Positions 8,295 through 59,756 of a stretch of 64,000 bases of DNA are shown one piece after another. Each line of letters opens with the position of its first letter. The first letter of the stretch is position 1. The translations under genes and the position numbers were made by a program. This DNA is from an uncultured Candidatus Saccharibacteria bacterium (GTDB lineage Bacteria > Patescibacteriota > Minisyncoccia > Phycocordibacterales > Phycocordibacteraceae), in contig CAYGGK010000001.1 of assembly GCA_964349555.1 (NCBI GenBank), forward strand, positions 49,486 through 113,485, written 5' to 3'. The notes beneath the pieces were generated by a model. The model made no database searches, had not been told where the DNA came from, and saw only the letters and a list, made by a program, of their open reading frames with translations.

Positions 8295-8876
8295 ATGGGT
8301 AAGCTTGAGACAGCATCGCGTAAAAGAAGAAGGAAACAGAATATACAACATGCCGTACTTGCTGCCGTTGCGGTCGTTGGGCTGCTCGCATGGGCGGCAG
8401 TTGCTCCGAACACTCTGAAACTCCTACGGTATTTGCCTAAAGAAAAGTACAATCTCGGATATCGAGCTCGCACGGCTGCTGGACGCCTCGTTACTAAAGG
8501 CCAGGCAAAATGGGTTGAAAGAGGTGGTAAAAAATATTTGCGACTAACTCCGGCCGGTCACAAAGCGCTTGCGTTTGAACAAACAAAGGTTACTCTCAAA
8601 AATCAGAAAAAGAAGTGGGATTGTCGGTGGCGAATGGTTGTTTTTGATATTCCAGAACGGCGGCGGCGCATTAGGATTCGTTTGCGCACATATATGAGCG
8701 AAGTCGGTTTCGTACGACTGCAGGATAGCGTGTGGGTATATCCCTACGATTGCGAAGATTTTATCGCACTTCTTAAGGCAGAGCTAAAGATCGGTAAGGA
8801 CGTACTTTATGCGATTGCTGACACAATTGAACACGACCGAGACATTCGTAAGTACTTCCATCTGCCGGAGCAATAG
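8295..8876 (+). CDS. PaaX-like (Cas2-fold middle domain) putative transcriptional regulator, paralog 1
   Basis: N-terminal hydrophobic wHTH-like segment. The motif WDCRWRMVVFDIPERRRRIRIRLR...GFVRLQDSVWVYPY recalls the PaaX middle domain. It shares about 45% identity, judged by eye, with the ORF at 15663-16250. Confidence 0.55.
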   Translation: MGKLETASRKRRRKQNIQHAVLAAVAVVGLLAWAAVAPNTLKLLRYLPKEKYNLGYRARTAAGRLVTKGQAKWVERGGKKYLRLTPAGHKALAFEQTKVTLKNQKKKWDCRWRMVVFDIPERRRRIRIRLRTYMSEVGFVRLQDSVWVYPYDCEDFIALLKAELKIGKDVLYAIADTIEHDRDIRKYFHLPEQ

Positions 8877-8924: not shown

Positions 8925-8981
8925 ACAGAAGAAATAATAGTTTGTCGTTCGTTTCAGGTGTTTTCCTATTGAGGTGTTGAT

Positions 8982-9007
8982 TGCGCGGCCCGTCCACGGG
9001 CCGCGCA
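8982..9007 (+). terminator. GC-rich hairpin (11-bp stem TGCGCGGCCCG / CGGGCCGCGCA, 4-nt loop) followed by a T-rich run; candidate intrinsic terminator or regulatory hairpin
   Basis: Perfect inverted repeat seen directly. It lies between PaaX-like gene 1 and the methyltransferase start. Confidence 0.4.
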
Positions 9008-9022
9008 TGTTATTTTATAGGC

Positions 9023-9559
9023 ATGACGGCCCATTTCAGTTCTCCGAGAGAGAATGTGCTACACCTTGGCTTGCGCGAGGGAATGAAGGTTGGAGACCTT
9101 GGCGCTGGTAGCGGCCATTACGCGCGCGCGGCCGCCGCCATCGTGGGGCACGGCGGTAAGGTCTACGCAATTGATGTGCAAGAGGACGTCCTTAAGCACC
9201 TCAAACTCAACACGCACGACCACCACAAAAGCATCATTGACGTGCTCTGGGGCAACATTGAGAAGCCTGGCGGGACGCATCTGCGCGACGCATCGTTAGA
9301 TGCCGTTATCCTCGCTAACACACTCTTCCAGGTTGAGAATCGTGACGGGTTACTTGCAGAGATCAAACGCGTTCTGAAGCAGGGGGGAAAGTTTATGCTT
9401 ATCGATTGGGCGGGTAGCTATGGGGGTATGGGCCCCACACCCGACCAAATCGTGCCTGAACACGAAGCCGAAGCGCTTTTCATCAACGGCGGTTTCCACA
9501 AGGTGAAGTCATTTCGCGCCGGGCCGCACCATTACGGCATTATCTTTACCGCACCATGA
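9023..9559 (+). CDS. Class I SAM-dependent methyltransferase (Methyltransf_11/25-like)
   Basis: VGDLGAGSG (motif I), VYAIDV (motif II), LDAVILANTL, GGKFMLIDW. The start was trimmed to the ATG at 9023. Confidence 0.65.
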   Translation: MTAHFSSPRENVLHLGLREGMKVGDLGAGSGHYARAAAAIVGHGGKVYAIDVQEDVLKHLKLNTHDHHKSIIDVLWGNIEKPGGTHLRDASLDAVILANTLFQVENRDGLLAEIKRVLKQGGKFMLIDWAGSYGGMGPTPDQIVPEHEAEALFINGGFHKVKSFRAGPHHYGIIFTAP

Positions 9560-10854
9560 AAATCTCTCTCTTCCAGGGAATCTTAATTGGCGTATTTGGT
9601 CTCGGCGCGGTTATCGGCCTTTTTGTTTTCGCGACGTATACGAGTACGGGGGACGGTAACGATACGGGTCCGGTTGTCGTGTGGGGCGTTCTGCCAGAGA
9701 CGGAGATGCAGACATTTCTCGTTACCATGATGGAGCGCGACACGACGTTTAAAAACGTATCGTATATACAAAAGGATCGCGGTTCTCTGGCCAATGATCT
9801 CTCCACGGCAATAGCGACCAATAGCGCGCCAGACCTTATTCTCGCCTCACAGGAAGAGCTTCATGCACTCGCAAAATTCATCGTACCGATATCTTTTGAT
9901 ACAGTATCTCCAAAATCGTTTACACAAACATTCATTGACGGGGCCGGGATTTTTACGTCTCCGAATGGTTATTACGGAATACCGTTCCTTACTGATCCGC
10001 TCGTGCTTTTTTCAAATAAATCCATCCTCGCGAGTAACGGCGTCGCGAAGCCCCCGGCAACTTGGGAAGCCTTGAGCGGCCTCGTGCCGACTATCACGGT
10101 GCTCACACCGACGCGGCAGATTGCGCGCGGTCTCATCGCGCTCGGCGCATACCAGAACGTCAATAATGCGCGCGGGATACTCTCGTCGCTCTTCCTCCAG
10201 ACGGGCGTGCCGATCTCTTCATATTCAGCGACGGGCGTGCTCGGCGCAAATCTCGGTACTCAATCGCGAAGCGGCGTGCCGCCCGGGCCCTCCGTGGTCA
10301 GCTTCTACACGCAATTCGCCGATCCGGCAAAAAGCTCGTATACATGGAATACTTCGTTGCCGAACTCCAGGGACCTGTTCCTTGCCGGCGACCTCGCGCT
10401 TTATCTCGGGTACGTGTCCGAGGCGCGCGCTCTCCGCTTAGCGAATCCAAACCTGAACTTTAGCGTTGGCGCGCTCCCGCAGCCGGCAACCGCGCAGGTG
10501 AAGAGTGCGTACGGTCGCATCTATTCGTTCATGATTCCACGCGGGGCGAAGAACGCTGCCGGGGCGTACAGAGTCGCCGTTCTCCTCTCTAACCAGACCG
10601 AGCAAGCCGTCGCCGCGGCCGCGACCGGTCTCGTGCCCGTCAACCTTGGCGCGCTTGGTACGGCGCCTGTTGACCCCGTTGCCGCCGTCGCGTACGCCGA
10701 GGCGCTCTACACGCGCGGATGGCTGTCCCCAGCCCCCTCAGAGGTAGATGCCGTTTTTTCAAGTATGATTGAAAATGTGACAAGCGGCCGACTCACTTTG
10801 GAAGGAGCGCTCGGCTCCGCCGAGCGCTCCTTAGGCGCCCTCCTTCAACAGTAA
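9556..10854 (+). CDS. Membrane-anchored extracellular solute-binding protein (SBP family 1-like); no adjacent permease or ATPase
   Basis: N-terminal TM, then VVVWG...APDLILAS...GIFTSPNGYYGIPFLTDPLVLFSNKSIL...PPATWEAL, which is typical of SBP_bac_1. Confidence 0.5.
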   Translation: MKISLFQGILIGVFGLGAVIGLFVFATYTSTGDGNDTGPVVVWGVLPETEMQTFLVTMMERDTTFKNVSYIQKDRGSLANDLSTAIATNSAPDLILASQEELHALAKFIVPISFDTVSPKSFTQTFIDGAGIFTSPNGYYGIPFLTDPLVLFSNKSILASNGVAKPPATWEALSGLVPTITVLTPTRQIARGLIALGAYQNVNNARGILSSLFLQTGVPISSYSATGVLGANLGTQSRSGVPPGPSVVSFYTQFADPAKSSYTWNTSLPNSRDLFLAGDLALYLGYVSEARALRLANPNLNFSVGALPQPATAQVKSAYGRIYSFMIPRGAKNAAGAYRVAVLLSNQTEQAVAAAATGLVPVNLGALGTAPVDPVAAVAYAEALYTRGWLSPAPSEVDAVFSSMIENVTSGRLTLEGALGSAERSLGALLQQ

Positions 10855-10856
10855 CC

Positions 10857-11348
10857 ATGCGCACCTCTTTCGTTGCAGCAATCATGTTCTTCGCGCTCGC
10901 GTCTTCGGCACTCGCACTTGGTCCATCAGGCGGCGGGACCGTCACCCCTCCCCCTCCAACTGTAGATCCAGTGCTCCAAGCAGAACAAGAGGCGGCGGCT
11001 AATTCGGGGTCGATCAATAATATCCCTACGCAAATCTCGCCAAGTGTAAATAATGTTCCGGGTGGCTCCAACGTCACCCTCGTCAATCCGTTAAGAGGCG
11101 GCGGGGACTTGATGACCTTCCTTCAAAACATCCTTGATTTCGTCATTGAAATCGGCACGGTCGTCGTCGTCCTCATGCTGGTGTATGTCGGCTACCTCTT
11201 TGTTGCCGCACAAGGGAACGAGACAAAAATAACCGAAGCGCGCAACGCGCTCCTCTGGACCGTCGTCGGCGCACTCATCCTCCTCGGCTCCAAAGCGATA
11301 GCCATCGGTATAGAGGCGACGGCGCAGGCGCTCTCGGTTGGCGGCTGA
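10857..11348 (+). CDS. Pilin-like two-TM peptide P1 (VirB2/TrbC-like topology), signal peptide
   Basis: Signal peptide, Pro/Gly-rich linker, then hydrophobic helix, charged loop (QGNETKITEARNALLW) and a second hydrophobic helix. Most divergent member of the array. Confidence 0.45.
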   Translation: MRTSFVAAIMFFALASSALALGPSGGGTVTPPPPTVDPVLQAEQEAAANSGSINNIPTQISPSVNNVPGGSNVTLVNPLRGGGDLMTFLQNILDFVIEIGTVVVVLMLVYVGYLFVAAQGNETKITEARNALLWTVVGALILLGSKAIAIGIEATAQALSVGG

Positions 11349-11625
11349 TATGGCCACGTCGTTTAAAGAATTTATCGGGGACAGCACGACTGGCGTCGTA
11401 GGCGCCATCAACACCGTCATTGTACCCGTCATATTCGCGCTCGCGCTCGCCGCCTTCGTCTGGGGCATCTACAAATACTTCATCTTGGGAGCAGCGAACG
11501 AGTCAGAAAAAGCAGAGGGCCGCACGTTCGCCCTGTGGGGCCTCATCGGCATAGTGCTCCTCTTCTCCGTCTGGGGATTTGTTAATTTGTTGCTATCCAC
11601 GCTCGGCCTCACGGCCACCGGCTGA
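11338..11625 (+). CDS. Pilin-like two-TM peptide P2
   Basis: Core VIVPVIFALALAAFVWGIYKYFILGAANESEKAEGRTFALWGLIGIVLLFSVWGFVNLL. No signal peptide. Confidence 0.55.
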   Translation: MAADMATSFKEFIGDSTTGVVGAINTVIVPVIFALALAAFVWGIYKYFILGAANESEKAEGRTFALWGLIGIVLLFSVWGFVNLLLSTLGLTATG

Positions 11626-11644
11626 TGTGTCATACTTACGCTAT

Positions 11645-12100
11645 ATGAAATCCATCACGCGTCTCGCTCTTATTCTCACTGCTTCTTTAGTGTGCGTCGC
11701 GCCGTCATTTGCGCTCGCGCAGACTCAAATTTATTCAGACTCATCCGGCAACTTCCAATACAACAGCCCTAGCTTCTCAATCGGTTTCGGGAGCGGTGGC
11801 ATGTTTATGTGCGGGGCGAGCAACATCTGCCGTGTTGCGTCCACCATCATCTACGTCATCAACAACGTGCTCGTGCCGCTCCTCTTCGCCGCCGCCTTCA
11901 TCACGTTTCTCTACGGCGTCGTCTCCAAGTACATCTTCTCTTATGGGGACGCCGAGAAGGTGAAGGAGGGTCACAAACTCATTCTCTGGGGTATTCTCGC
12001 CTTTGTCATTATGATATCGCTTTGGGGCCTCGTGAATGTCGTCGCGAACACCTTCGGCCTCTACGGCATCTCCGCGCCGCCCCTGCCGAGCTCATTCTGA
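11645..12100 (+). CDS. Pilin-like two-TM peptide P3, signal peptide
   Basis: Signal peptide (MKSITRLALILTASLVCVAPSFALA). Core INNVLVPLLFAAAFITFLYG...GDAEKVKEGHKLILWGILAFVIMISLWGLVNVV. Confidence 0.55.
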   Translation: MKSITRLALILTASLVCVAPSFALAQTQIYSDSSGNFQYNSPSFSIGFGSGGMFMCGASNICRVASTIIYVINNVLVPLLFAAAFITFLYGVVSKYIFSYGDAEKVKEGHKLILWGILAFVIMISLWGLVNVVANTFGLYGISAPPLPSSF

Positions 12101-12112
12101 TAGAACAGAAAC

Positions 12113-12610
12113 ATGAAAAAATACCTCACAGCCCTCGCCCTTGCTTTCTTTGTCTTTGCGCCTTTGGCGCTGGCACAGCCCGCAGAAACTACTGAGATAC
12201 CATTCACTGGCACTACTGACCTGCAACCGTTCGGAGAAACTACTACCGACAATGACAACGTACAGTTCGACGACCAAATCTATAACGGCCTAACACAAAC
12301 ACAGGGAGGTACCGGAGGTGGCATCAACATAGGAGTCATCAAGCCGTATGCGGACAGCATTATCGGCATCATCAACTTCATCTTCCTCCCGGTTATCATG
12401 GCGGTTGCCTTCATCGTCTTCATCTGGGGCATCTACAAATACTTTATCTTGGGTGCGTCGAACGAATCAGAAAAAGCAGAGGGTCGTAAGTTTGCGATGT
12501 GGGGCATCATCGGCTTCGCCATCATCATCTCTATCTGGGGCCTTGTGAATACCTTTACGGGCGCCCTAAATCTGCAGGGTGGGCGCGCCCCGAGGATTCC
12601 AACCCTCTAA
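12113..12610 (+). CDS. Pilin-like two-TM peptide P4, signal peptide
   Basis: Signal peptide, then the core FLPVIMAVAFIVFIWGIYKYFILGASNESEKAEGRKFAMWGIIGFAIIISIWGLVNTF, which is nearly identical to P2. Confidence 0.55.
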   Translation: MKKYLTALALAFFVFAPLALAQPAETTEIPFTGTTDLQPFGETTTDNDNVQFDDQIYNGLTQTQGGTGGGINIGVIKPYADSIIGIINFIFLPVIMAVAFIVFIWGIYKYFILGASNESEKAEGRKFAMWGIIGFAIIISIWGLVNTFTGALNLQGGRAPRIPTL

Positions 12611-12691
12611 ATAGGGGGCTATCCACACGCCGAGATAAGGTATATTGACCAAGCCGGTAAAGACGTTACTATTAAGAGCAGTTAATCACTT

Positions 12692-13075
12692 ATGTATACT
12701 ATGAAAAAAGCACTTGCCCTCGCTACCGGAACGCTCGTCGCGCTCGCCCTGCCGCTTGTCTCGTCGGCCCAAACGGTGCGGAACCTTTCGGATGCCGGTT
12801 CGCTCATTATCAACGTTATCAATAATGTGCTAGTCCCCGTGCTCTTCGCTGTTGCTTTCATCGTCTTCCTTTGGGGAGCGTTCAATACTTTCATTCTAGG
12901 TCAGGGCTCCGAAGATGTGAAAGAGAAAGGCAAGAGTCTCATGTTGTACGGCCTTATCGGCTTCTTCGTCATGGTCTCCATCTGGGGCTTGGTGAACATC
13001 CTCACTGGCACCGTGAGCTTCGGTAATACGACGGGGCCAAGCAATACGCCTTCATCAGGCGTTCAGGTCAGATAA
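12692..13075 (+). CDS. Pilin-like two-TM peptide P5, signal peptide
   Basis: Signal peptide. Core INNVLVPVLFAVAFIVFLWG...GQGSEDVKEKGKSLMLYGLIGFFVMVSIWGLVNIL. Confidence 0.55.
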   Translation: MYTMKKALALATGTLVALALPLVSSAQTVRNLSDAGSLIINVINNVLVPVLFAVAFIVFLWGAFNTFILGQGSEDVKEKGKSLMLYGLIGFFVMVSIWGLVNILTGTVSFGNTTGPSNTPSSGVQVR

Positions 13076-13348
13076 ATGCCGGTTCTCCACGAATTCCTCG
13101 GGAAGGTTGTCGTAGAAATCGTCAACCCGCTCATCCTCCTTTTGGCGGCTGTCGCCTTTGTCCTCTTTCTCTGGGGAGTGTTTGAATTCGTGGCTCACGC
13201 TGGAGACGAGACGAAACGCACAGAGGGCAAGAGAGCCATTATGTGGGGCCTTGTCGGCCTCGTCGTTATCTTCGGTGTGTACGGCATTCTCAATATTTTG
13301 ACGGATACGTTTAATCTGGAGCGGGTTAAAAAGATAAGCGGCTTATAA
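13076..13348 (+). CDS. Pilin-like two-TM peptide P6
   Basis: Core LILLLAAVAFVLFLWG...HAGDETKRTEGKRAIMWGLVGLVVIFGVYGILNIL. No signal peptide. Confidence 0.5.
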   Translation: MPVLHEFLGKVVVEIVNPLILLLAAVAFVLFLWGVFEFVAHAGDETKRTEGKRAIMWGLVGLVVIFGVYGILNILTDTFNLERVKKISGL

Positions 13349-13352
13349 ATAA

Positions 13353-13392
13353 AAAAGGCCGGCGGGTTCTACCGCGCGGCCTTTTGTTGGAC
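13353..13392. terminator. Bidirectional hairpin between convergent genes (AAAAAGGCCGGCGGG...CGCGCGGCCTTTTG)
   Basis: GC stem flanked by an A-run and a T-run, seen directly. Confidence 0.45.
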
Positions 13393-13406: not shown

Positions 13407-14234
13407 TTAATTCATCGGAGCATAGTAGTAGGATACGATGTTTTGATTTTTCGTATCCTTACTCGTTACATATACTGCAGCAAGCGGGCCGTCAGTACAT
13501 GATTCCGAACACTCGCTTCTATCCTGATACACGTTATGTACACGGAAGTTGTTTCCAATGAACATTGCATGCATATAGGGCGGAACCGGAATGTTCTCTG
13601 ACCTTCCGCCCGCCGGAATGACCAACTTCGGCCATTCCGACTGAGGCGAGCTCGCGAGCGGGATTTCAGAGCGCGCAGCCTGCTCTGGTGGTTTTGGCGG
13701 TTCGTTGAACCACCCGATGAAGGGCAGAACGACGAAGAGCAAAGTCATCGCCGCGACGAGTACTCCTTGCAGGGGTCTTGCCCACGGTGCCTTAACCATC
13801 GTCTGAACGATTGAGAGAGCCCCGGCCGAACCGCCGAGGATCAAAACAATCCAAAGCCAATGGTCCTTCACACACTCCCACACCGTCCCCAGCGATGGTG
13901 ACGGTGTTTTCAATAAAGACCCCACTTGTTGCCACGGCACCGACCACCAGACGATTAGTGCCACAACAGCCACGCCGACGACGGCGAAAATGGAGCTGAT
14001 AAGGTTGCCAGTATCACTTCCGGTACCACTTTCCGCACGAGCAGGAGTCTTGCCAGTTTCGGCGGAGGGAACCGGTCCTTTCTTTTGGTGTCCGATCTTC
14101 TGGTCGAGCCGGCTTTGTGCCGCAGCCCTCTTTTTTAAATGAGGCTTGTTAACTCGGTACAAGATGAATCCGAGCACAACTAATGACACAATAGCGACAA
14201 GTGCCGCCAGAAACCATATCCACATCATGCTCAT
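13407..14234 (-). CDS. Multi-TM membrane protein, Cys-containing C-terminal domain; possible NfeD-like partner of the SPFH protein
   Basis: Four to five hydrophobic helices. 4-nt overlap with the upstream SPFH gene. No motif recognised. Confidence 0.35.
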   Translation of the reverse strand: MSMMWIWFLAALVAIVSLVVLGFILYRVNKPHLKKRAAAQSRLDQKIGHQKKGPVPSAETGKTPARAESGTGSDTGNLISSIFAVVGVAVVALIVWWSVPWQQVGSLLKTPSPSLGTVWECVKDHWLWIVLILGGSAGALSIVQTMVKAPWARPLQGVLVAAMTLLFVVLPFIGWFNEPPKPPEQAARSEIPLASSPQSEWPKLVIPAGGRSENIPVPPYMHAMFIGNNFRVHNVYQDRSECSESCTDGPLAAVYVTSKDTKNQNIVSYYYAPMN

Positions 14235-15484
14235 TTTTCACCTCCTTTTCCAGCCAACGGAACGAACGGATTGTTCGCCCAGATGACTGTGTTGCCGGCA
14301 CCCTTTGAGGATTCCCGCATCGCATCGAGTTGTGCGAGTAGCATTCCCTCGGCGCCATGGTCTTTAATGACATCGAGCCGCACACGGAGAGCCTCCGCTT
14401 CTTTTTCGCCAATCATCCCGATGACATCTGCTTTCGCTTGGCCAGTTTTGAGTGTTGACCGAGCCTCTTGTTCGGCGGTATACACTGCCGCCGCGGCTTT
14501 TTGGGCTTCCGTTTTTGCGTCTCCGGAGAGTTCGACAGTTTGCAGATCGGCCGTGCGTATCTCTACGCCGTACCTTCCACGCAACCCCCTTGGCAGAGGG
14601 GCGTCGTCTTTCTCGTCGGCTAACAGGTCACTAAGGTCGATAATGGGTTTTGAGAACTCCTCAGACCATTGGCTCGATATACTCTTCATATCTCCATCTT
14701 TTTTGATGGAGATAAGATCATCGTATCCCTTACTTCCGACGAAGTTCCGCACTTGGCGGTTGATCGCGGCAGTGATACGCCGAATCCAGTCCTCACCGCT
14801 GAACAACGCGCGATACGGGTTGCGTATAGCGACTGTCACGAGCGTGAGCTCATCAGTTGGGAGACGATCATTTGTCTCCGCGCCGTCGGTCACGATCGCA
14901 TAGGTGAAGTCGGCGACATAGATGAAGTCAGTTACTTCGGCGCGCGGAAGGACTTTTTCTTTCCCTTCCTCACTTTCCGTGTACGTCTCGTTCCACTCGA
15001 ATTGGTAGACATACACGCTATTTGCCCACGGCCATCCGACCCAGTAGAGGCCGAGTTTTTTGAGTAGCCACGAACGGTCGTCATAATAACTATCCTCCGT
15101 CTCCTCAAAACCATTTGCGTTGTCTTTGCCGTGATAGAGAACCTCCCAGCTTGGGGAATCACTCTTGAAGCCTTTTTCCCCCTTCTTCGTCGGGTTGAGA
15201 TGGTATCCCTTAAAGGACATGATGAAGCGGTCGAACGACGAGCCGCGCATGATAGCCTTGGCGGTTCCTTCATTTACCTTCGTGAAGAGAATACTCTCTT
15301 CTGCGAGCCACGGGAAGCCGAACACCACGACAGCCGTAATAAGCGGTACGAGTACCGCCACTACGACAGCCGCAATAGGTGCGACAGCCACAATAAGCGG
15401 CCAGAATTCTGCTACGACGGCCGCAACGACGGCTAGAATGCCTAGCACAGCGAACAAACGTTTCATGATTATTCTCCCAGTCAA
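14231..15484 (-). CDS. SPFH/band-7 (stomatin/flotillin-like) membrane protein
   Basis: N-terminal TM helices, then a core ending in the Ala/Glu-rich coiled-coil GVEIRTADLQTVELSGDAKTEAQKAAAAVYTAEQEARS, typical of the SPFH C-terminus. Confidence 0.6.
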   Translation of the reverse strand: MTGRIIMKRLFAVLGILAVVAAVVAEFWPLIVAVAPIAAVVVAVLVPLITAVVVFGFPWLAEESILFTKVNEGTAKAIMRGSSFDRFIMSFKGYHLNPTKKGEKGFKSDSPSWEVLYHGKDNANGFEETEDSYYDDRSWLLKKLGLYWVGWPWANSVYVYQFEWNETYTESEEGKEKVLPRAEVTDFIYVADFTYAIVTDGAETNDRLPTDELTLVTVAIRNPYRALFSGEDWIRRITAAINRQVRNFVGSKGYDDLISIKKDGDMKSISSQWSEEFSKPIIDLSDLLADEKDDAPLPRGLRGRYGVEIRTADLQTVELSGDAKTEAQKAAAAVYTAEQEARSTLKTGQAKADVIGMIGEKEAEALRVRLDVIKDHGAEGMLLAQLDAMRESSKGAGNTVIWANNPFVPLAGKGGEK

Positions 15485-15617: not shown

Positions 15618-15669
15618 TGGGAAATCAACAATTCTTGCTATAGCAGAAGTTGTTGATAGTTGTTATTTA
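15618..15669. repeat. Repeat R2a: ~52-bp element containing the imperfect palindrome ATCAACAATTCTTGCTATAGCAGAAGTTGTTGAT
   Basis: Seen directly. Copies at 16268-16301 (same orientation) and 30199-30250 (reverse complement, 1 mismatch in the core). Confidence 0.8.
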
Positions 15670-16250
15670 AAAGGGAGGCCGAAATGTTTGCGTATCCACA
15701 CATCATTCTCTATTTCTTCCACAACCGCATAGAGCACGTCCTTGCCGATATGCAGGTCTGCTTTAAGGAGGGCAACAAATTCTTCACAGTTGTACGGATA
15801 AATCCACGCGCTGTCCTGTACACGGAGAAAACCGACCTCTTGTACGTGATGCCGTAATATTTCACGAGTCTTTTTCCGTTTTTCTGGAACGTCAAACAGT
15901 ATCAAGCGGTAACGCCGATCCCACTTGCGCGGTTTGTGCGCGAGAAGAGAGAGCCTCTGTTGTTCCATGGCTAAAGACTCTTCACCACGTCTTGTAAGGC
16001 GCACACAACGTTTCCCGTCATGTTCGACGAACTCAATCTCGCCCTTCATTTTCAATCGCGCGAGAATGCCTCTGGTCTGATACTTAAGTTTGGCAAGAAC
16101 GCCGCTCTTCCCAAGCATCTGAAACATGTTAGGTGCAATGGCCGCAACAGCGATAACTCCGGCTACACCTATCGTCATAAGCATCGCGCTGCGTACATTG
16201 CGGCGCCTACTCTTCTGCGCGGCACTCGCTTCAAGAGATTTCATGTACAC
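15663..16250 (-). CDS. PaaX-like (Cas2-fold middle domain) putative transcriptional regulator, paralog 2
   Basis: WDRRYRLILFDVPEKRKKTREILRHHVQEVGFLRVQDSAWIYPYNCEEFVALLKADLHIGKDVLYA aligns residue-for-residue with the ORF at 8295-8876. Confidence 0.55.
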   Translation of the reverse strand: MYMKSLEASAAQKSRRRNVRSAMLMTIGVAGVIAVAAIAPNMFQMLGKSGVLAKLKYQTRGILARLKMKGEIEFVEHDGKRCVRLTRRGEESLAMEQQRLSLLAHKPRKWDRRYRLILFDVPEKRKKTREILRHHVQEVGFLRVQDSAWIYPYNCEEFVALLKADLHIGKDVLYAVVEEIENDVWIRKHFGLPFK

Positions 16251-17848: not shown

Positions 17849-18181
17849 CTAGTTTTTATGAGATTCGCCCAGCGGCTCATTGTTGTCGAGGAGGAAGTCA
17901 ATGCGAGGAAGGCGCAGACGCGAGTGGCTCTTCAGATAATCTGAGAATGCCTCACGCTTGCGCGCGAGGAAGGCGAGCGCGGCGCGAGCCTTCTCTACGG
18001 GGAAGACGCTGACGAAGATCACTATACGCTCCCCGTGCGATACGCCCTCTGCCCGAATGACGGTGATGAGCGAGTCAGTCCCCGCTTCTCTCGCGATAAA
18101 CTGCGCCGCTTCGCGCGCGACAATTTCGACGGCTCGACCGGCCTGTTTCCGCGGGCTTCGACTCCGTGCGTCTGGGTTCAT
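17849..18181 (-). CDS. rbfA: Ribosome-binding factor A
   Basis: 110-aa protein immediately downstream of infB, the conserved infB-rbfA order. Has an RbfA-like KH-domain pattern and 4-nt overlap with infB. Confidence 0.6.
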   Translation of the reverse strand: MNPDARSRSPRKQAGRAVEIVAREAAQFIAREAGTDSLITVIRAEGVSHGERIVIFVSVFPVEKARAALAFLARKREAFSDYLKSHSRLRLPRIDFLLDNNEPLGESHKN

Positions 18182-19647
18182 GATTCGGTAACGACAAAGG
18201 CAACGAGTTCGTCGCCGTACGCCGCGTTCTCGCGCGCCTCAATCTCCACGCCGAAGTCGCCTTCGGTCTTTATCTCCTTCACGTCTGCGCGCGCTTGCTG
18301 AAGATTTTTAATACTGCCTCGCGTGAGCTCATCCTCTCGGCGGAGCACCTTCACGCGATTCCCAACAGTGAACATACCTGACACATAGCGCGCGCCCAGA
18401 ACCTGCTTTTTCGCTCCGAGCGAAAAAGTTTTGAGCACCATTGCGCGCCCAAGCTCTTTCTCCACCGCGACGGTGGGCACTTTTGCGTCCAGAAGGGTTC
18501 TCACCTTTTCAGATAATTCGTAAATGATAGAGAAAGAAAGCACCGGAATATTCTCTCGTTCAGCGAGGTCGCGCGCGACGGCGTCGGTCCCGACGTTGAA
18601 GGCGATTATTGTTCCGCCGCCAGCCTTTGCCGTCTTCACGTCCGTTTCCGACACACTCCCGACGCCGGAAGAAATGACGCGGACGGATGCGCTCTCGTGA
18701 GTAATTTTGGACAGTTCGTGGGCGATAGCGTCAATGGAGCCGGCGACGTCGGCCTTCACGACGAGTGGGAGTTCGGCTATTCCCTCGACCGAAACGCCTC
18801 GCTCCGGCGCTTCGCCAAATGATGTTGCGTTTTTCCGTGCGAGCGCCTCCGCCTCTTTTTTATTTTTTACCACGCTGAAGAGCGCGCCCGCCGTCGGCAA
18901 CTTGCTGAATCCTGAAATACGAGCCGGCTCCGATGGCCCAGCGTGTGGGACACGTGTGCCGCGAAAGTCCTCAATGAAGCGTATGGGCGCATAGGCGTCG
19001 CCCGCGACGACGAACCCGTCCAGAGAGAGAGTGCCGTCTTTCACGATGAGTGTTGCGGAGGCACCGCGCCTCGGGTCCTGTGTTGATTCCAGCACAAAAC
19101 CGGTTGCGCTTACTGAAGGGTCTGCGGTAATCTCGGCTAGGTCGGCCGCGAGTAGGACGAGGTCCAGAAGCTCAGAAATACCCTCGCCAGTCTTGGAAGA
19201 TATTTGCGCATACGCGATTTCTCCGCCCATTCCTTCAATAAATATTTCATTCTCAATAAGCGAATTTTTCGTGCGGGCGATGTCCGCGTTATTTTTATCA
19301 ATCTTTGTAATCGCGATTATGAAAGGGATGCTGGCCTCTTTAATCGCCGTAAGTGCGTCGAGCGTCTGTGGCATCACTCCTTCGTCCGCGGCAACGACTA
19401 GAATGGCGATATCCGCGGCCGCCGCCCCGCGCGTGCGGAGCGCCTTAAACGCCTCGTGTCCCGGCGTGTCAAGAAAGGTGATCGGCCGCTCGCTGTGGAG
19501 CGCGATATACGCGGCAACGTGCTGGGTAATACCGCCAGCCTCGCCCGCGACGATATTTTCCTTCCGGATGTAATCCAGAAGAGAAGACTTCCCGTGGTCT
19601 ATGTGACCCATCACCGCGATGACGGGCGGTCGTGCGGTCCGCGCCAT
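18178..19647 (-). CDS. infB: Translation initiation factor IF-2 (short form)
   Basis: G-domain VIAVMGHIDHGKSSLLD, DTPGHEAF, TKID. C-terminal IF-2 beta-barrel. Lacks the long N-terminal region. Confidence 0.9.
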   Translation of the reverse strand: MARTARPPVIAVMGHIDHGKSSLLDYIRKENIVAGEAGGITQHVAAYIALHSERPITFLDTPGHEAFKALRTRGAAAADIAILVVAADEGVMPQTLDALTAIKEASIPFIIAITKIDKNNADIARTKNSLIENEIFIEGMGGEIAYAQISSKTGEGISELLDLVLLAADLAEITADPSVSATGFVLESTQDPRRGASATLIVKDGTLSLDGFVVAGDAYAPIRFIEDFRGTRVPHAGPSEPARISGFSKLPTAGALFSVVKNKKEAEALARKNATSFGEAPERGVSVEGIAELPLVVKADVAGSIDAIAHELSKITHESASVRVISSGVGSVSETDVKTAKAGGGTIIAFNVGTDAVARDLAERENIPVLSFSIIYELSEKVRTLLDAKVPTVAVEKELGRAMVLKTFSLGAKKQVLGARYVSGMFTVGNRVKVLRREDELTRGSIKNLQQARADVKEIKTEGDFGVEIEARENAAYGDELVAFVVTES

Positions 19648-24573: not shown

Positions 24574-24597
24574 TCTAGTGTGCTATCGTTTTGTCGA

Positions 24598-24668
24598 GGG
24601 CCTATAGTTTAGCGGTAAAACAGCGGTCTCCAAAACCGCCGTCCCAGGTTCGAGTCCTGGTGGGCCCG
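24598..24668 (+). tRNA. tRNA-Trp (anticodon CCA)
   Basis: Acceptor GGGCCTA/TGGGCCC, anticodon stem GCGGT/ACCGC, loop CTCCAAA, T-arm CCAGG TTCGAGT CCTGG. Confidence 0.8.
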
Positions 24669-24719
24669 CACGGTGGGGAAAATCATATTCTCCCTCTAGA
24701 TACGCGGTATACTATCTCT

Positions 24720-25733
24720 ATGCGTTCCCGCACAGCTCTGTTTGCACTCTTGCTCGTCGCGGGCTCTCTCGCGTTGCCTCTCGTCGCGCAGGCGGGCATC
24801 CCATTCTTCGGTCCAATCATCGAGCCTAATATTTCGAACATTGCAACGAATTCCCAGTATTGTCCTCTGGGTTGGGGTGCAGTCATCGTCGTTATCAATA
24901 ACATAATCAGCCTCCTTATAACGCTCGCTATCGTCTTTGTTGCGCCACTGATGATCGCATGGGCCGGTTTTCTTCTTGTCGTAAATCCGGTGAATGCGGG
25001 CGGGAAAGAAGAAGCGAAAAAGATTCTTACTAATACCGTTGTCGGCATCGTTCTCGCGCTTGCGGGTTACATGATAGTGGCCGCGCTCATGGCAGTTCTC
25101 TACGATTCTAGGGAGGTGGGTAAAACATGGACACAACTCATTACCTCAGGTGGCCTAGACCCCTGCATGGAGATTGCCGGGAGCCTCAACCAAGCTCAGC
25201 AGGAAGCCGGAGCTCCGACTCCAGGTGTTGCCGTAGCCCCAGGCGCGTGTCCGGCGCCGCTTTCGTCGCTTACCGACCCGTCCGCGACTCAAATGGAAGG
25301 AGGGCAGACTGTGATATGGACTAATACCGACCCTCGGCTACAAGCATGCGCAAACAAATTCATAAGAGACGCAGGTGGCGGCAGTGTTACTTCTGCATAC
25401 AGGCCGCAATCGTATCAGACGCATTTATGGGAGATACATGACCGATGGTGTACGCAGGGTTTGAAATCTAATTCGGACCCAGTATGCAGTTCTCTCAGAG
25501 ATACTGTTTCTCAGGAAGTGGCAAAGCACGGCCTTTCCTCCTGTGGCTCCGTTGCTCAAAATGCCTCTAATCATGGCAATCCACAGGGCGCGAGCATTGG
25601 AGTCGATATTAGTCTTACCAGTGGTGATTATAGCGGGACACAAACGTTGGCGTCGCAATCGTGTCTTACATGGGCAAATTATCCAGGAGATCAATGGCAC
25701 TACAACCTTAAATCTAGCTGTTCGTGCCAATAA
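24720..25733 (+). CDS. Secreted or membrane fusion protein: N-terminal pilin-like two-TM module plus C-terminal Cys-rich M15 (VanY-like) peptidoglycan peptidase domain
   Basis: Signal peptide. Two TM helices around the loop NPVNAGGKEEAKKIL. The C-terminus has SAYRPQSYQ (SxYRS...Q), GASIGVDIS (G.A.DI) and DQWHYN (WHY), matching the three M15 zinc-binding signatures; many Cys. The start was trimmed to 24720, downstream of tRNA-Trp. Confidence 0.55.
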   Translation: MRSRTALFALLLVAGSLALPLVAQAGIPFFGPIIEPNISNIATNSQYCPLGWGAVIVVINNIISLLITLAIVFVAPLMIAWAGFLLVVNPVNAGGKEEAKKILTNTVVGIVLALAGYMIVAALMAVLYDSREVGKTWTQLITSGGLDPCMEIAGSLNQAQQEAGAPTPGVAVAPGACPAPLSSLTDPSATQMEGGQTVIWTNTDPRLQACANKFIRDAGGGSVTSAYRPQSYQTHLWEIHDRWCTQGLKSNSDPVCSSLRDTVSQEVAKHGLSSCGSVAQNASNHGNPQGASIGVDISLTSGDYSGTQTLASQSCLTWANYPGDQWHYNLKSSCSCQ

Positions 25734-58406: not shown

Positions 58407-59756
58407 TCAAGCCAGCTTTTTATAATCAACCTCGCGTTTGCCTTCAGGGATGACGCGCTCAATAACGAATTTTCCATTCTTGAAAGACGCCTCAGTAATT
58501 TTTATGCGTTTCCCATTTTCAAAAAAATACGTGCCGATAGAGTCAGCATAGGCGCGATACTTGTTCCAATTCTCTTCGGCGGGAGCGTCAAGCGAGAGAA
58601 GACCGTCTTCTTTTTTGATTTTATACGCGCGCGTTGCCTGCGAAGTGTCCTGCGGAGTCGGCGCGAGGTTTCCTTCCAAATATTCCGGGAGCGTTTCAAC
58701 AAGAAGCTTCGCGCCCATCTCGACAAGACGAGGCCGAAGTTCTCGCACAGTTTCATCTGGCCTGATAGGTGTCGCCTCCTGCGCGAGCACGTCGCCTGCA
58801 TCGAGTTCTTTTGCCATTTTCTGTATCGTCACTCCCGTTTCACTTTCTCCCGCGAGAAGAGCAGTTTCGAGAGGTGTTGCTCCTCGATATTTCGGCAGAA
58901 GCGAATAATGCACGTTTAGGACGCCGCTCGGGAATGCGTCTATAAGCGTCTCGGGAAATATTTTCCCATAAGCGACGACGAGGGCGTAGTCGCATCCGAG
59001 TGCGCCAATCGTCCTAATGGTCTCTGAGTCCAGCTTTTCTGGAGTCATGACCGGAATGTCGTGCTCGAGGGCGAGAGTCTTCGTTTCTGAGGGAGTGAGA
59101 GCGAGACCTCGGCCTCTCGGAGCGTCTGGAGAGGTGACGACGACCGAGGGCACGAATCCGCGCTCTATGAGAAGAACGAGCGTGTCGCTCGCGACCTTCG
59201 GCGTGCCGAAGTAGGCGAACGAGTGCGCCAGCCCATGCGGGATACGAATAAGATGTGTCGCGTGGTCGGTAAAGAGAATGCCGTTCAAATGATCCACCTC
59301 ATGTTCAAATATCTGCGCCATGAGCCCGCCGCCGCCGCGTTGAAAGTGAGAGCCGTCAATGCGCCTCGCCTTGATAGTGGCACGCTCGTGTCTCTTTGTT
59401 GTGCCGTAGACGCCGTGCACCGAGAGGCACCCTTCGTCCGTAGTCGCTCTTTTACGCGAGGTTTTTACAATCTCAGGGTTCACATACACCTCCACTTCAG
59501 GAGGGAGCACTTCATACCGAGGGCCGCCCTCGGTAGGTTTAGGCGGGGGAAGAGTTCTGTCTTTGCGCACGATGAACACGCGATATGAGACGCCTATTTG
59601 TGGCGCGGCGATAGCGACCCCTTCCGGGGAGCGGTCAAGCGCTTCGCTCATGTCGTTAACCAGGCGCACGAGCTCCGGCGAGCCGAAGAGATTCTCCGGC
59701 ACCGGTTTCGCGACTTCCCGCAGTATGGGCGCACCGTCCTGCACAATTTCTTTCAT
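58407..59756 (-). CDS. def-fmt: Fused peptide deformylase (N-terminus) plus methionyl-tRNA formyltransferase (C-terminus)
   Basis: The N-terminal half has Def motifs GVAIAAPQIG, EGCLS, EHEVDHLNG. The C-terminal half has the Fmt core: HYSLLPKYRGATP and the Fmt C-terminal domain. Single uninterrupted 449-aa ORF. Confidence 0.8.
   Translation of the reverse strand: MKEIVQDGAPILREVAKPVPENLFGSPELVRLVNDMSEALDRSPEGVAIAAPQIGVSYRVFIVRKDRTLPPPKPTEGGPRYEVLPPEVEVYVNPEIVKTSRKRATTDEGCLSVHGVYGTTKRHERATIKARRIDGSHFQRGGGGLMAQIFEHEVDHLNGILFTDHATHLIRIPHGLAHSFAYFGTPKVASDTLVLLIERGFVPSVVVTSPDAPRGRGLALTPSETKTLALEHDIPVMTPEKLDSETIRTIGALGCDYALVVAYGKIFPETLIDAFPSGVLNVHYSLLPKYRGATPLETALLAGESETGVTIQKMAKELDAGDVLAQEATPIRPDETVRELRPRLVEMGAKLLVETLPEYLEGNLAPTPQDTSQATRAYKIKKEDGLLSLDAPAEENWNKYRAYADSIGTYFFENGKRIKITEASFKNGKFVIERVIPEGKREVDYKKLA
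59515..59535. repeat. Palindromic element P-c: TACCGAGGGCCGCCCTCGGTA inserted in-frame within the def portion of def-fmt
   Basis: Seen directly; encodes part of the extra PKPTEGGPRYEV segment. Confidence 0.8.

Follow-up and report, generated by a model that had tools for sequence, protein, structure and literature searches.

A tandem array of six T4SS_pilin-family (PF18895) genes at a conserved, virB4-unlinked chromosomal position in Paceibacteria

Tandem arrays of short genes for VirB2-like pilins of type IV secretion systems (T4SSs) have been described in the Patescibacteria, which account for much of the bacterial diversity that has not been cultivated, and whose members grow attached to other microorganisms. 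These arrays are the closest counterparts of the array analysed here, i.e. six consecutive genes (g1 to g6) at positions 10857-13348 of a 64,000-nucleotide stretch of contig CAYGGK010000001.1, the whole of which is called the window in the following. In the survey of Quinonero-Coronel et al. (2025, Microb Genom), 3,035 Patescibacteria genomes were searched with the Pfam profiles PF18895 (T4SS_pilin) and PF04956 (TrbC/VirB2), and 441 ‘VirB2 arrays’ were reported, each composed of 2-11 genes, whose identity averages 25% and does not exceed 54% (PMC12102498). These 441 arrays are those near virB4 (legend to Fig. S9) and are most abundant in Microgenomatia and Saccharimonadia, and PF18895 genes adjoin VirB4/TrsD/VirB3 in many Patescibacteria (Table S3, PMC12102498). 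In Southlakia epibionticum ML1, six tandem PF18895 genes (SEML1_0014-0019) are found beside VirB6...VirB4, and all six are essential for epibiotic growth on the host according to transposon sequencing (Wang et al. 2023, Cell; PMC10633639). Few machineries have been shown to be indispensable for the attached lifestyle, and the Patescibacterial T4SS with its unusual pilin array is one of them; a 2025 review of T4SSs singles out the Southlakia array as what might be the first pilus in a monoderm T4SS (PMC12857230).

Since tandem PF18895 arrays have been published for the Patescibacteria, and PF18895 is a curated Pfam entry, the present array is a further instance of a kind already known. The novel filament subunit family that the first-pass annotation of the window (made from the letters alone, without database searches) had entertained is, therefore, superseded by published arrays (PMC12102498; PMC10633639). 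What is added here is the conserved position unlinked to virB4, the positional orthology of the copies, a predicted internal promoter with a DnaA-box-like element, and a linked gene for a solute-binding protein (SBP); in the Paceibacteria, the largest class, it has a fixed place in the chromosome, away from virB4. On balance, the six genes probably encode paralogous VirB2-like T4SS pilins, which would be specialised subunits assembled by a T4SS encoded elsewhere.

The likeness to the Southlakia array is close in that both consist of six tandem same-strand PF18895 genes (~100-185 aa in Southlakia) of a patescibacterium, with divergent sequences, alike structures and weak PF04956 matches of some copies. 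However, the Southlakia array lies directly beside VirB6/PrgI/VirB4, near the first genes of the genome numbering, whereas the array here belongs to a member of the Paceibacteria, is found between gyrA and infB behind the SBP gene, and includes two copies that lack a signal peptide; the evidence of essentiality comes from Southlakia. The main difference is that the array here is not linked to virB4. With respect to the published VirB2 arrays, the low identity among copies is similar (the cores are 31% identical on average, with pairs ranging from 12% to 52%), but a location near virB4 and other T4SS genes, within ~20 genes, is what defines those arrays. Furthermore, roles in versatility or akin to antigenic variation were proposed for them (PMC12102498); here, the conserved order of orthologues speaks for subunits that are fixed and specialised.

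Outside the Patescibacteria, the proteobacterial VirB2/TrbC proteins (e.g. Agrobacterium VirB2) share the small size, two hydrophobic helices, a polar loop and, judged by the predicted leaders, a signal peptide ending in A-x-A/Q, but the loop, with its conserved NE.EK.EG(R/K) motif, is ~8 residues longer in the array, two copies are leaderless and the organism is monoderm; in addition, all the VirB2/TrbC genes retrieved are followed by virB3, whereas the array is not beside virB3 or virB4. The tandem VirB2 paralogues of Bartonella and Anaplasma are, as far as they are cited in PMC12102498, read as a source of variants that helps to evade immunity or keeps the host range flexible; within the limits of that citation, they too are several divergent VirB2-type genes in a row, while the copies here hold stable orthologous positions under purifying selection. 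Finally, g2 and g6 are leaderless two-helix hairpins with a charged loop, as are PrgF of pCF10 and the Mbov_0395 family, although both of those are encoded by single genes in T4SS operons of mobile elements.

The six genes and their protein family

The six open reading frames (ORFs) are all on the + strand and follow one another directly, as first described. Gene g1 (10857-11348, 163 aa) encodes the two-helix core preceded by a predicted signal peptide and a variable linker rich in Pro, Gly and Ser; g2 (11350-11625, 91 aa) is without signal peptide, its maximal ORF (11338-11625) opening with TTG at 11338; g3 (11645-12100, 151 aa) encodes a predicted signal peptide and a linker, with a maximal ORF (11579-12100) that opens with TTG at 11579; g4 (12113-12610, 165 aa) encodes a predicted signal peptide and an acidic/Thr-rich linker; g5 (12701-13075, 124 aa) has an alternative ATG at 12692 (maximal ORF 12692-13075, 127 aa); and g6 (13076-13348, 90 aa), again without signal peptide, starts directly after the g5 stop. 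The likelier ATG starts used here for g2 (11350), g3 (11645) and g5 (12701) agree with the public gene calls on identical contigs. Of the initial size range of 90-173 aa, the lower end stands, and the upper end corresponds to the maximal ORF of g3, since the likelier start of this gene is the ATG at 11645, leading to 151 aa. The genes are separated by gaps of 0-19 nt, except for ~90 nt ahead of g5.

In the alignment of g2-g6, helix 1 ends in F(L/I/V)(W/Y)G, the charged loop reads G.(A/S)(N/D)E.EK.EG(R/K)..(L/M)WG and helix 2 ends in S(I/L/V)WG(L/F)VN, so that the single core claimed for all six copies is confirmed for these five. It applies more loosely to g1, which is divergent (12-30% core identity) and where the WG and VN motifs are missing; its orthologues nevertheless go with the remaining copies when profiles are compared, the g1-type and g5-type groups being joined at an hhalign probability of 98% (E 9e-14). 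The closest pair is g4 and g2, with 52% core identity, and the paralogy is seen in DNA repeats too (g2/g4, 186 nt at 75%). Two hydrophobic segments of transmembrane (TM) length are present in each of the six copies, and a signal-peptide-like N-terminus with an A-x-A-type site is found in g1 (ALA/LG), g3 (ALA/QT), g4 (ALA/QP) and g5 (SSA/QT), while the same scan detected no such N-terminal segment in g2 and g6; these assignments, which are heuristic hydropathy calls, match the earlier division into four copies with signal peptide and linker and two starting at the core. The core of ~70 residues, in which the conserved charged loop joins the two helices, is confidently modelled as a hairpin by AlphaFold2: the model of g5 consists of a signal-peptide helix and two long helices (32-72/74-108), with a core predicted local distance difference test (pLDDT) score of 84-94, and the model of g6 is a helical hairpin (H2-40/H45-78) with a pLDDT of 84.6.

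All six copies are members of the PF18895 family. Each exceeds its gathering score of 26.6 bits (31.6, 36.2, 30.7, 37.6, 35.9 and 40.1 bits for g1 to g6, respectively; E from 4e-10 to 3e-7), and the same family is assigned in the precomputed Pfam annotation of the public gene calls. Because each protein matches a single Pfam family above its gathering score, the similarity within the array is far beyond chance. The T4SS-pilin (VirB2/TrbC-like) architecture proposed in the first-pass annotation is thereby upheld, with the reservation that the profile search suggested there succeeds with PF18895 and stays below threshold with PF04956: in the latter search, g1 scores 24.5 bits (E 3e-5) against a gathering score of 27.9 bits, g5 scores 13.4 bits, and g2, g3, g4 and g6 are without any match. 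What the searches returned is, in other words, homology to a pilin family, and not a lack of it combined with strong homology to an unrelated family. In NCBIfam, the family NF045849 (Mbov_0395 pilin-like conjugal transfer protein) is matched with 38.1 bits for g6, just below the cut-off of 40 bits, 34.7 for g4, ~29 for g2, g3 and g5, and 12 for g1 (E down to 9e-10). Comparison of the whole family with eight annotated proteobacterial VirB2/TrbC proteins yields a weak but collinear hhalign match, encompassing signal peptide and both helices (probability 65%, E 6e-5), which falls to a probability of 20% with the g1 orthologues.

The family is large. A word-indexed search led to at least 3586 homologues from Parcubacteria, Paceibacterota and Minisyncoccia, some of them named ‘pilin’ by NCBI, and 14,700 cluster representatives match at E<=1e-3. 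The best database matches are mostly g5-like and 121-127 aa long. Two or three PF18895-like stretches are present in some longer entries of 230-370 aa (e.g. P0129, P0130, P0131), in which pilin domains could have been fused in tandem, unless the gene calls read through a stop. No pilin was matched by the family profile among PDB sequences, where just spurious matches to G-protein-coupled receptors appeared at E 0.4, nor did g1 find a match in a tblastn search of 72,556 plasmids. Fold searches are not decisive because a helical hairpin fits thousands of unrelated structures.

Positional orthology, internal promoter and conserved neighbourhood

Scanning the GTDB genomes with g4 as the query returned 27 loci of different species, in all of which the copies are in tandem, complete arrays holding 4-7, mostly 5-6, of them. 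The order of the copies is conserved: the first gene is of the g1-type and the last of the g6-type in 21 of 21 complete arrays, and the penultimate gene is of the g5-type in 19 of the 21. In the four closest species the six genes match one-to-one, with an identity between orthologues (41-79%) clearly above that between paralogues (12-52%); g3 orthologues, for instance, are 53-77% identical in the four closest loci. The g5 orthologues are 65-81% identical and have the lowest rate of non-synonymous substitution among array genes (dN 0.14-0.26). The gene-wide ratio of non-synonymous to synonymous substitution (dN/dS) of the pilin genes is 0.09-0.35, values that are rough because dS is saturated, and that of the SBP gene is ~0.15, i.e. 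similar. Housekeeping genes change more slowly than the pilin genes (dN 0.07-0.21 versus 0.14-0.56), while the SBP gene keeps about the same pace as the latter. Within the population itself, six independently assembled contigs are 99.98-100% identical.

Variability is concentrated in the N-terminal extensions of the genes at position 1 and positions 3/4, the orthologues of which are 114-368 aa long and often Cys- or Gly/Thr/Pro-rich, the g2-, g5- and g6-types being compact (position-2 orthologues are mostly 79-111 aa). Thus, the N-terminal regions of the g1 orthologues (129-368 aa) are hypervariable and go from almost nothing to ~280 residues, a conserved L.NPL motif standing directly ahead of helix 1, and the g4 orthologues (128-325 aa in total) have linkers of very different length. 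In several species the g1 orthologues carry Cys-rich N-terminal modules, and the orthologue in one locus (L010) adds a long C-terminal extension.

The gap ahead of g5 is the site of a predicted g5-g6 promoter (12619-12672, + strand), formed by a cTATCCACA box, 17 nt, TTGAC (-35), 17 nt and TACTAT (-10). The layout TT(A/T/G)TCC(A/C)CA-17-TTGAC-17-TAnnnT recurs in 16 of 17 orthologous intergenic regions, with a box spacing of 17-18 nt, and the pattern occurs once in the window, as compared with 0.13 occurrences expected. It would, therefore, seem that g5 and g6 have their own conserved promoter. The box upstream of it resembles the DnaA-box consensus, TTATCCACA, which suggests a possible DnaA- or replication-linked control of g5-g6. 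At its other end the operon-like array is closed by a terminator-like element (13353-13385), a GC-rich hairpin followed by a U-run that is common to the convergent gene ending at 13407; its fold has a free energy of -28.9 kcal/mol (z-score -4.5), and none of 200 shuffled sequences was as stable.

Taken together, positional orthology, low dN/dS and the conserved internal promoter favour subfunctionalised subunits over diversifying selection acting on whole genes, and position-by-position conservation favours a multi-subunit structure with specialised parts over antigenic variation. These comparisons point to paralogues that may be ancient, subfunctionalised and non-interchangeable subunits, rather than a reservoir of variants.

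In more than 20 species of Paceibacteria, the array is embedded in a collinear block (S1, metallo-beta-lactamase (MBL) hydrolase, GyrA ... methyltransferase, SBP, array ... IF-2, aminotransferase, ClpB), the order of which persists down to a GyrA identity of 64%. The SBP gene (9556-10854, + strand) encodes a membrane-anchored, extracellular protein of 432 aa with one N-terminal TM segment, which matches SBP_bac_8 (E 6.6e-22) and SBP_bac_1 in Pfam and weakly resembles sugar/maltose-binding proteins in the PDB. Its stop codon is 2 nt ahead of the g1 start, and at its other end the start codon overlaps with the end of the methyltransferase gene that precedes it; the SBP gene is directly upstream of the array in 23 of the 27 loci, with SBP identity down to ~36%, and it is an orphan, as no ABC permease or ATPase gene is found beside it. 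The SBP is probably co-transcribed with the array and is a candidate member of the system, although adjacency is weak evidence because the whole neighbourhood (20 kb) is collinear. The genes for the S-adenosylmethionine-dependent methyltransferase and the SBP (8981-10854) overlap or abut each other and g1, and precede the array in 22-23 of the 27 species.

A probable T4SS pilin role and competing explanations

If the six proteins are paralogous VirB2-like pilins, they would enter the cytoplasmic membrane as helical hairpins, g1, g3, g4 and g5 by way of Sec and signal peptidase I, and g2 and g6 through insertion by the first helix, so that the charged loop would face the cytoplasm and both termini the exterior. 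The processing of the four leader-bearing pilins has an obvious candidate in the signal peptidase I (Peptidase_S26) encoded 9 kb upstream of the array (1572-2129, - strand). The subunits would then be extracted and assembled by a chromosomal T4SS of the MPF-FATA-like (mating-pair formation) type, comprising VirB4/TrsD/VirB3/VirB6, which is assumed from relatives and would be encoded elsewhere, in Paceibacteria typically near dnaA. Two carrier genomes, Parcubacteria C7867-004 (locus L017) and GW2011_GWB1_57_6 (source of the database protein P0050), are VirB4-positive in the published tables (Table S1, PMC12102498). The product would be a hetero-oligomeric pilus, or a channel extension, contacting the host cell that the epibiont relies on. 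In it, g5, possibly together with g6, would be the likely major subunit, being compact, most conserved and separately promoted, while g1, g3 and g4 may act as minor or surface-decorating subunits, with hypervariable extracellular N-terminal extensions that could tune host recognition. The g5/g6 core, the variable surface subunits g1/g3/g4, the DnaA-box-like promoter element and the linked SBP are, in this way, nominated as candidates.

Several observations weigh against such a pilus. The distribution of roles between g5 as the putative major subunit and g1, g3 and g4 as minor ones is drawn from conservation and promoter layout. A filament is not known for any PF18895 member, and ‘pilin’ is a prediction even in Southlakia (PMC10633639, PMC12857230). 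The gathering score of PF04956 is reached by none of the six copies; the hhalign probabilities with VirB2 are just 20-65%, and such scores are inflated by TM helices; and the inter-helix loop, besides being ~8 residues longer than that of VirB2, is of mixed charge instead of basic. Finally, no VirB4, VirB6, VirB3 or VirD4/coupling-protein domain was found in the window (ORFs of at least 150 aa searched against Pfam) or in the 10 kb beyond each end (precomputed Pfam annotation), where just housekeeping genes are found; the search covered 84 kb in total of a contig of 190-234 kb. The absence of VirB4, VirD4 and VirB6 genes already stated for the window is, thus, confirmed for ORFs of this size and extends to both sides, placing the nearest possible T4SS gene at least 22 kb upstream or at least 60 kb downstream of the array. 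Nor were such domains found in the flanks of the 27 related loci, which consist of collinear housekeeping genes.

Among the alternatives, the one that fares best retains the T4SS and removes the extracellular pilus: the proteins could be two-helix subunits of the translocation channel or of the assembly platform, comparable with PrgF. Indeed, Patescibacterial T4SSs are of the monoderm MPF-FATA type, which is generally pilus-free (PMC12102498; PMC10633639), and PrgF of pCF10 is a 75-aa two-helix hairpin with a charged loop. Furthermore, g2-g6 come close to the cut-off of NF045849, a family found in integrative and conjugative elements of Mollicutes, and the published CONJScan hits of two Nomurabacteria genomes include a tandem VirB2 (T_virB2), PrgF and PrgF away from virB4, which may be the same type of array (Table S3, PMC12102498). 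However, the NF045849 scores remain below the curated cut-off, and four signal peptides and extracellular linkers of up to ~280 residues (in orthologues) would be odd for a buried part, these same features making a surface-exposed polymer the more natural reading. Kinship with PrgF and PrgG was also sought by direct profile comparison, and no similarity to either pCF10 protein was detected (probability 0.3-1.3% for PrgF), so that the PrgF connection stays a literature lead only. On the other hand, the near-threshold NF045849 scores and the Nomurabacteria tandem hint at two-TM proteins related to VirB2 in monoderm MPF-FATA systems. Overall, a pilus-free channel or platform seems rather unlikely.

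A less probable proposal is that of an envelope apparatus specific to Paceibacteria and independent of any T4SS, in which array and SBP would cooperate in adhesion or in the capture and uptake of host molecules. The tight junctions of the SBP gene on both of its sides, its presence directly upstream of the array in 23 of the 27 loci, the missing ABC permease and ATPase genes and the similar rates of SBP and pilin genes (dN/dS ~0.15 versus 0.09-0.35) would all fit, as would the failure to find T4SS genes within 84 kb. Still, the adjacency is unspecific, the whole 20-kb neighbourhood being collinear, g5-g6 are under a separate predicted promoter, and PF18895 genes are found inside T4SS clusters of other Patescibacteria classes, with no SBP in the Southlakia T4SS gene rows consulted. 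We therefore hold it to be improbable. A related scenario, by which the array is uncoupled from the T4SS and forms with the SBP a separate hetero-oligomeric envelope filament or pore of fixed composition, with its core subunits g5 and g6 switched by DnaA through the box, appears similarly doubtful; if it were true, contact with the host would be coupled, through g5 and g6, to chromosome replication in the epibiont.

Even fainter is the case for a variation device, in which divergent pilins under diversifying selection would serve immune-like evasion or a shifting host range, as proposed by the authors of PMC12102498. In its favour are the low identity of the paralogues (mean 31%), a pilin dN (0.14-0.56) that exceeds that of housekeeping genes (0.07-0.21) and the N-terminal linkers of g1-type and g3/g4-type copies, which are hypervariable both in how long they are and in their residues. 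The first-pass annotation, too, had read multiplicity and divergence as a sign of diversifying selection. This interpretation is opposed by one-to-one positional orthology in 21 arrays, by orthologues much closer to each other than paralogues are, by a gene-wide dN/dS (0.09-0.35) well under 1, though with saturated dS, and by the lack of polymorphism across six assemblies of the same population (99.98-100% identity); the repeats found go back to the coding paralogy, and none beyond it was of a recombination type. Another early suggestion, that of membrane-active peptides (holin-like, bacteriocin or immunity-type) with no link to a secretion system, has in its favour solely small size and two-TM topology and is scarcely credible, given that no copy has a match in PHROGs, that no lysin/endolysin, C39-peptidase transporter or phage gene is nearby, that the array keeps its place among housekeeping genes throughout a bacterial class, that signal peptides and long linkers are atypical of such peptides and that Pfam assigns the proteins to a different family (PF18895).

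Other features of the window

The window is an ordinary stretch of housekeeping chromosome of the Paceibacteria/Parcubacteria type, with genes for GyrA, a short IF-2, ClpB, MiaA, RelA/SpoT, TopA, DprA, SerRS, AlaRS, RpoA, ribosomal proteins and MreB, and seven tRNAs; nothing but tRNAs was returned by Rfam for the window. The nearest loci all belong to metagenome-assembled genomes of Paceibacteria, Parcubacteria, Kaiserbacteria or Nomurabacteria, with a GyrA identity of 64-90%. IF-2 (18178-19647, - strand, 489 aa) is made of the GTPase and C-terminal domains and is devoid of the long N-terminal region, which fits a reduced genome.

Downstream of the terminator-like hairpin, the region 13407-15484 (- strand) encodes a multi-TM protein of 275 aa, convergent to the array and without a family match, and an SPFH/Band-7-like protein of 417 aa, the match of which is weak (21.9 bits) and below the gathering score. 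The 275-aa protein was considered as a partner of the array and dropped, being conserved in just 3 of the 27 loci. NCBIfam provided no match for the neighbouring unknowns, among them the SPFH protein, the SBP and the 275-aa membrane protein. Two paralogous PaaX_M/Cas2-like proteins of ~194 aa flank the array region (8295-8876, + strand; 15663-16250, - strand), and one of them passes the TIGR01573 cas2 cut-off (26.3 versus 24.5 bits); the neighbouring genes checked for Pfam families included no cas gene, a CRISPR array not having been searched for.

Farther away, a 380-aa maximal ORF without a family match (24591-25733, + strand) opens within the tRNA-Trp gene (24598-24669), and its true start is, therefore, further downstream. 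At 58407-59756 (- strand), a 449-aa ORF combines a peptide deformylase (residues 1-168) with the N- and C-terminal domains of methionyl-tRNA formyltransferase, and looks like a def-fmt gene fusion.

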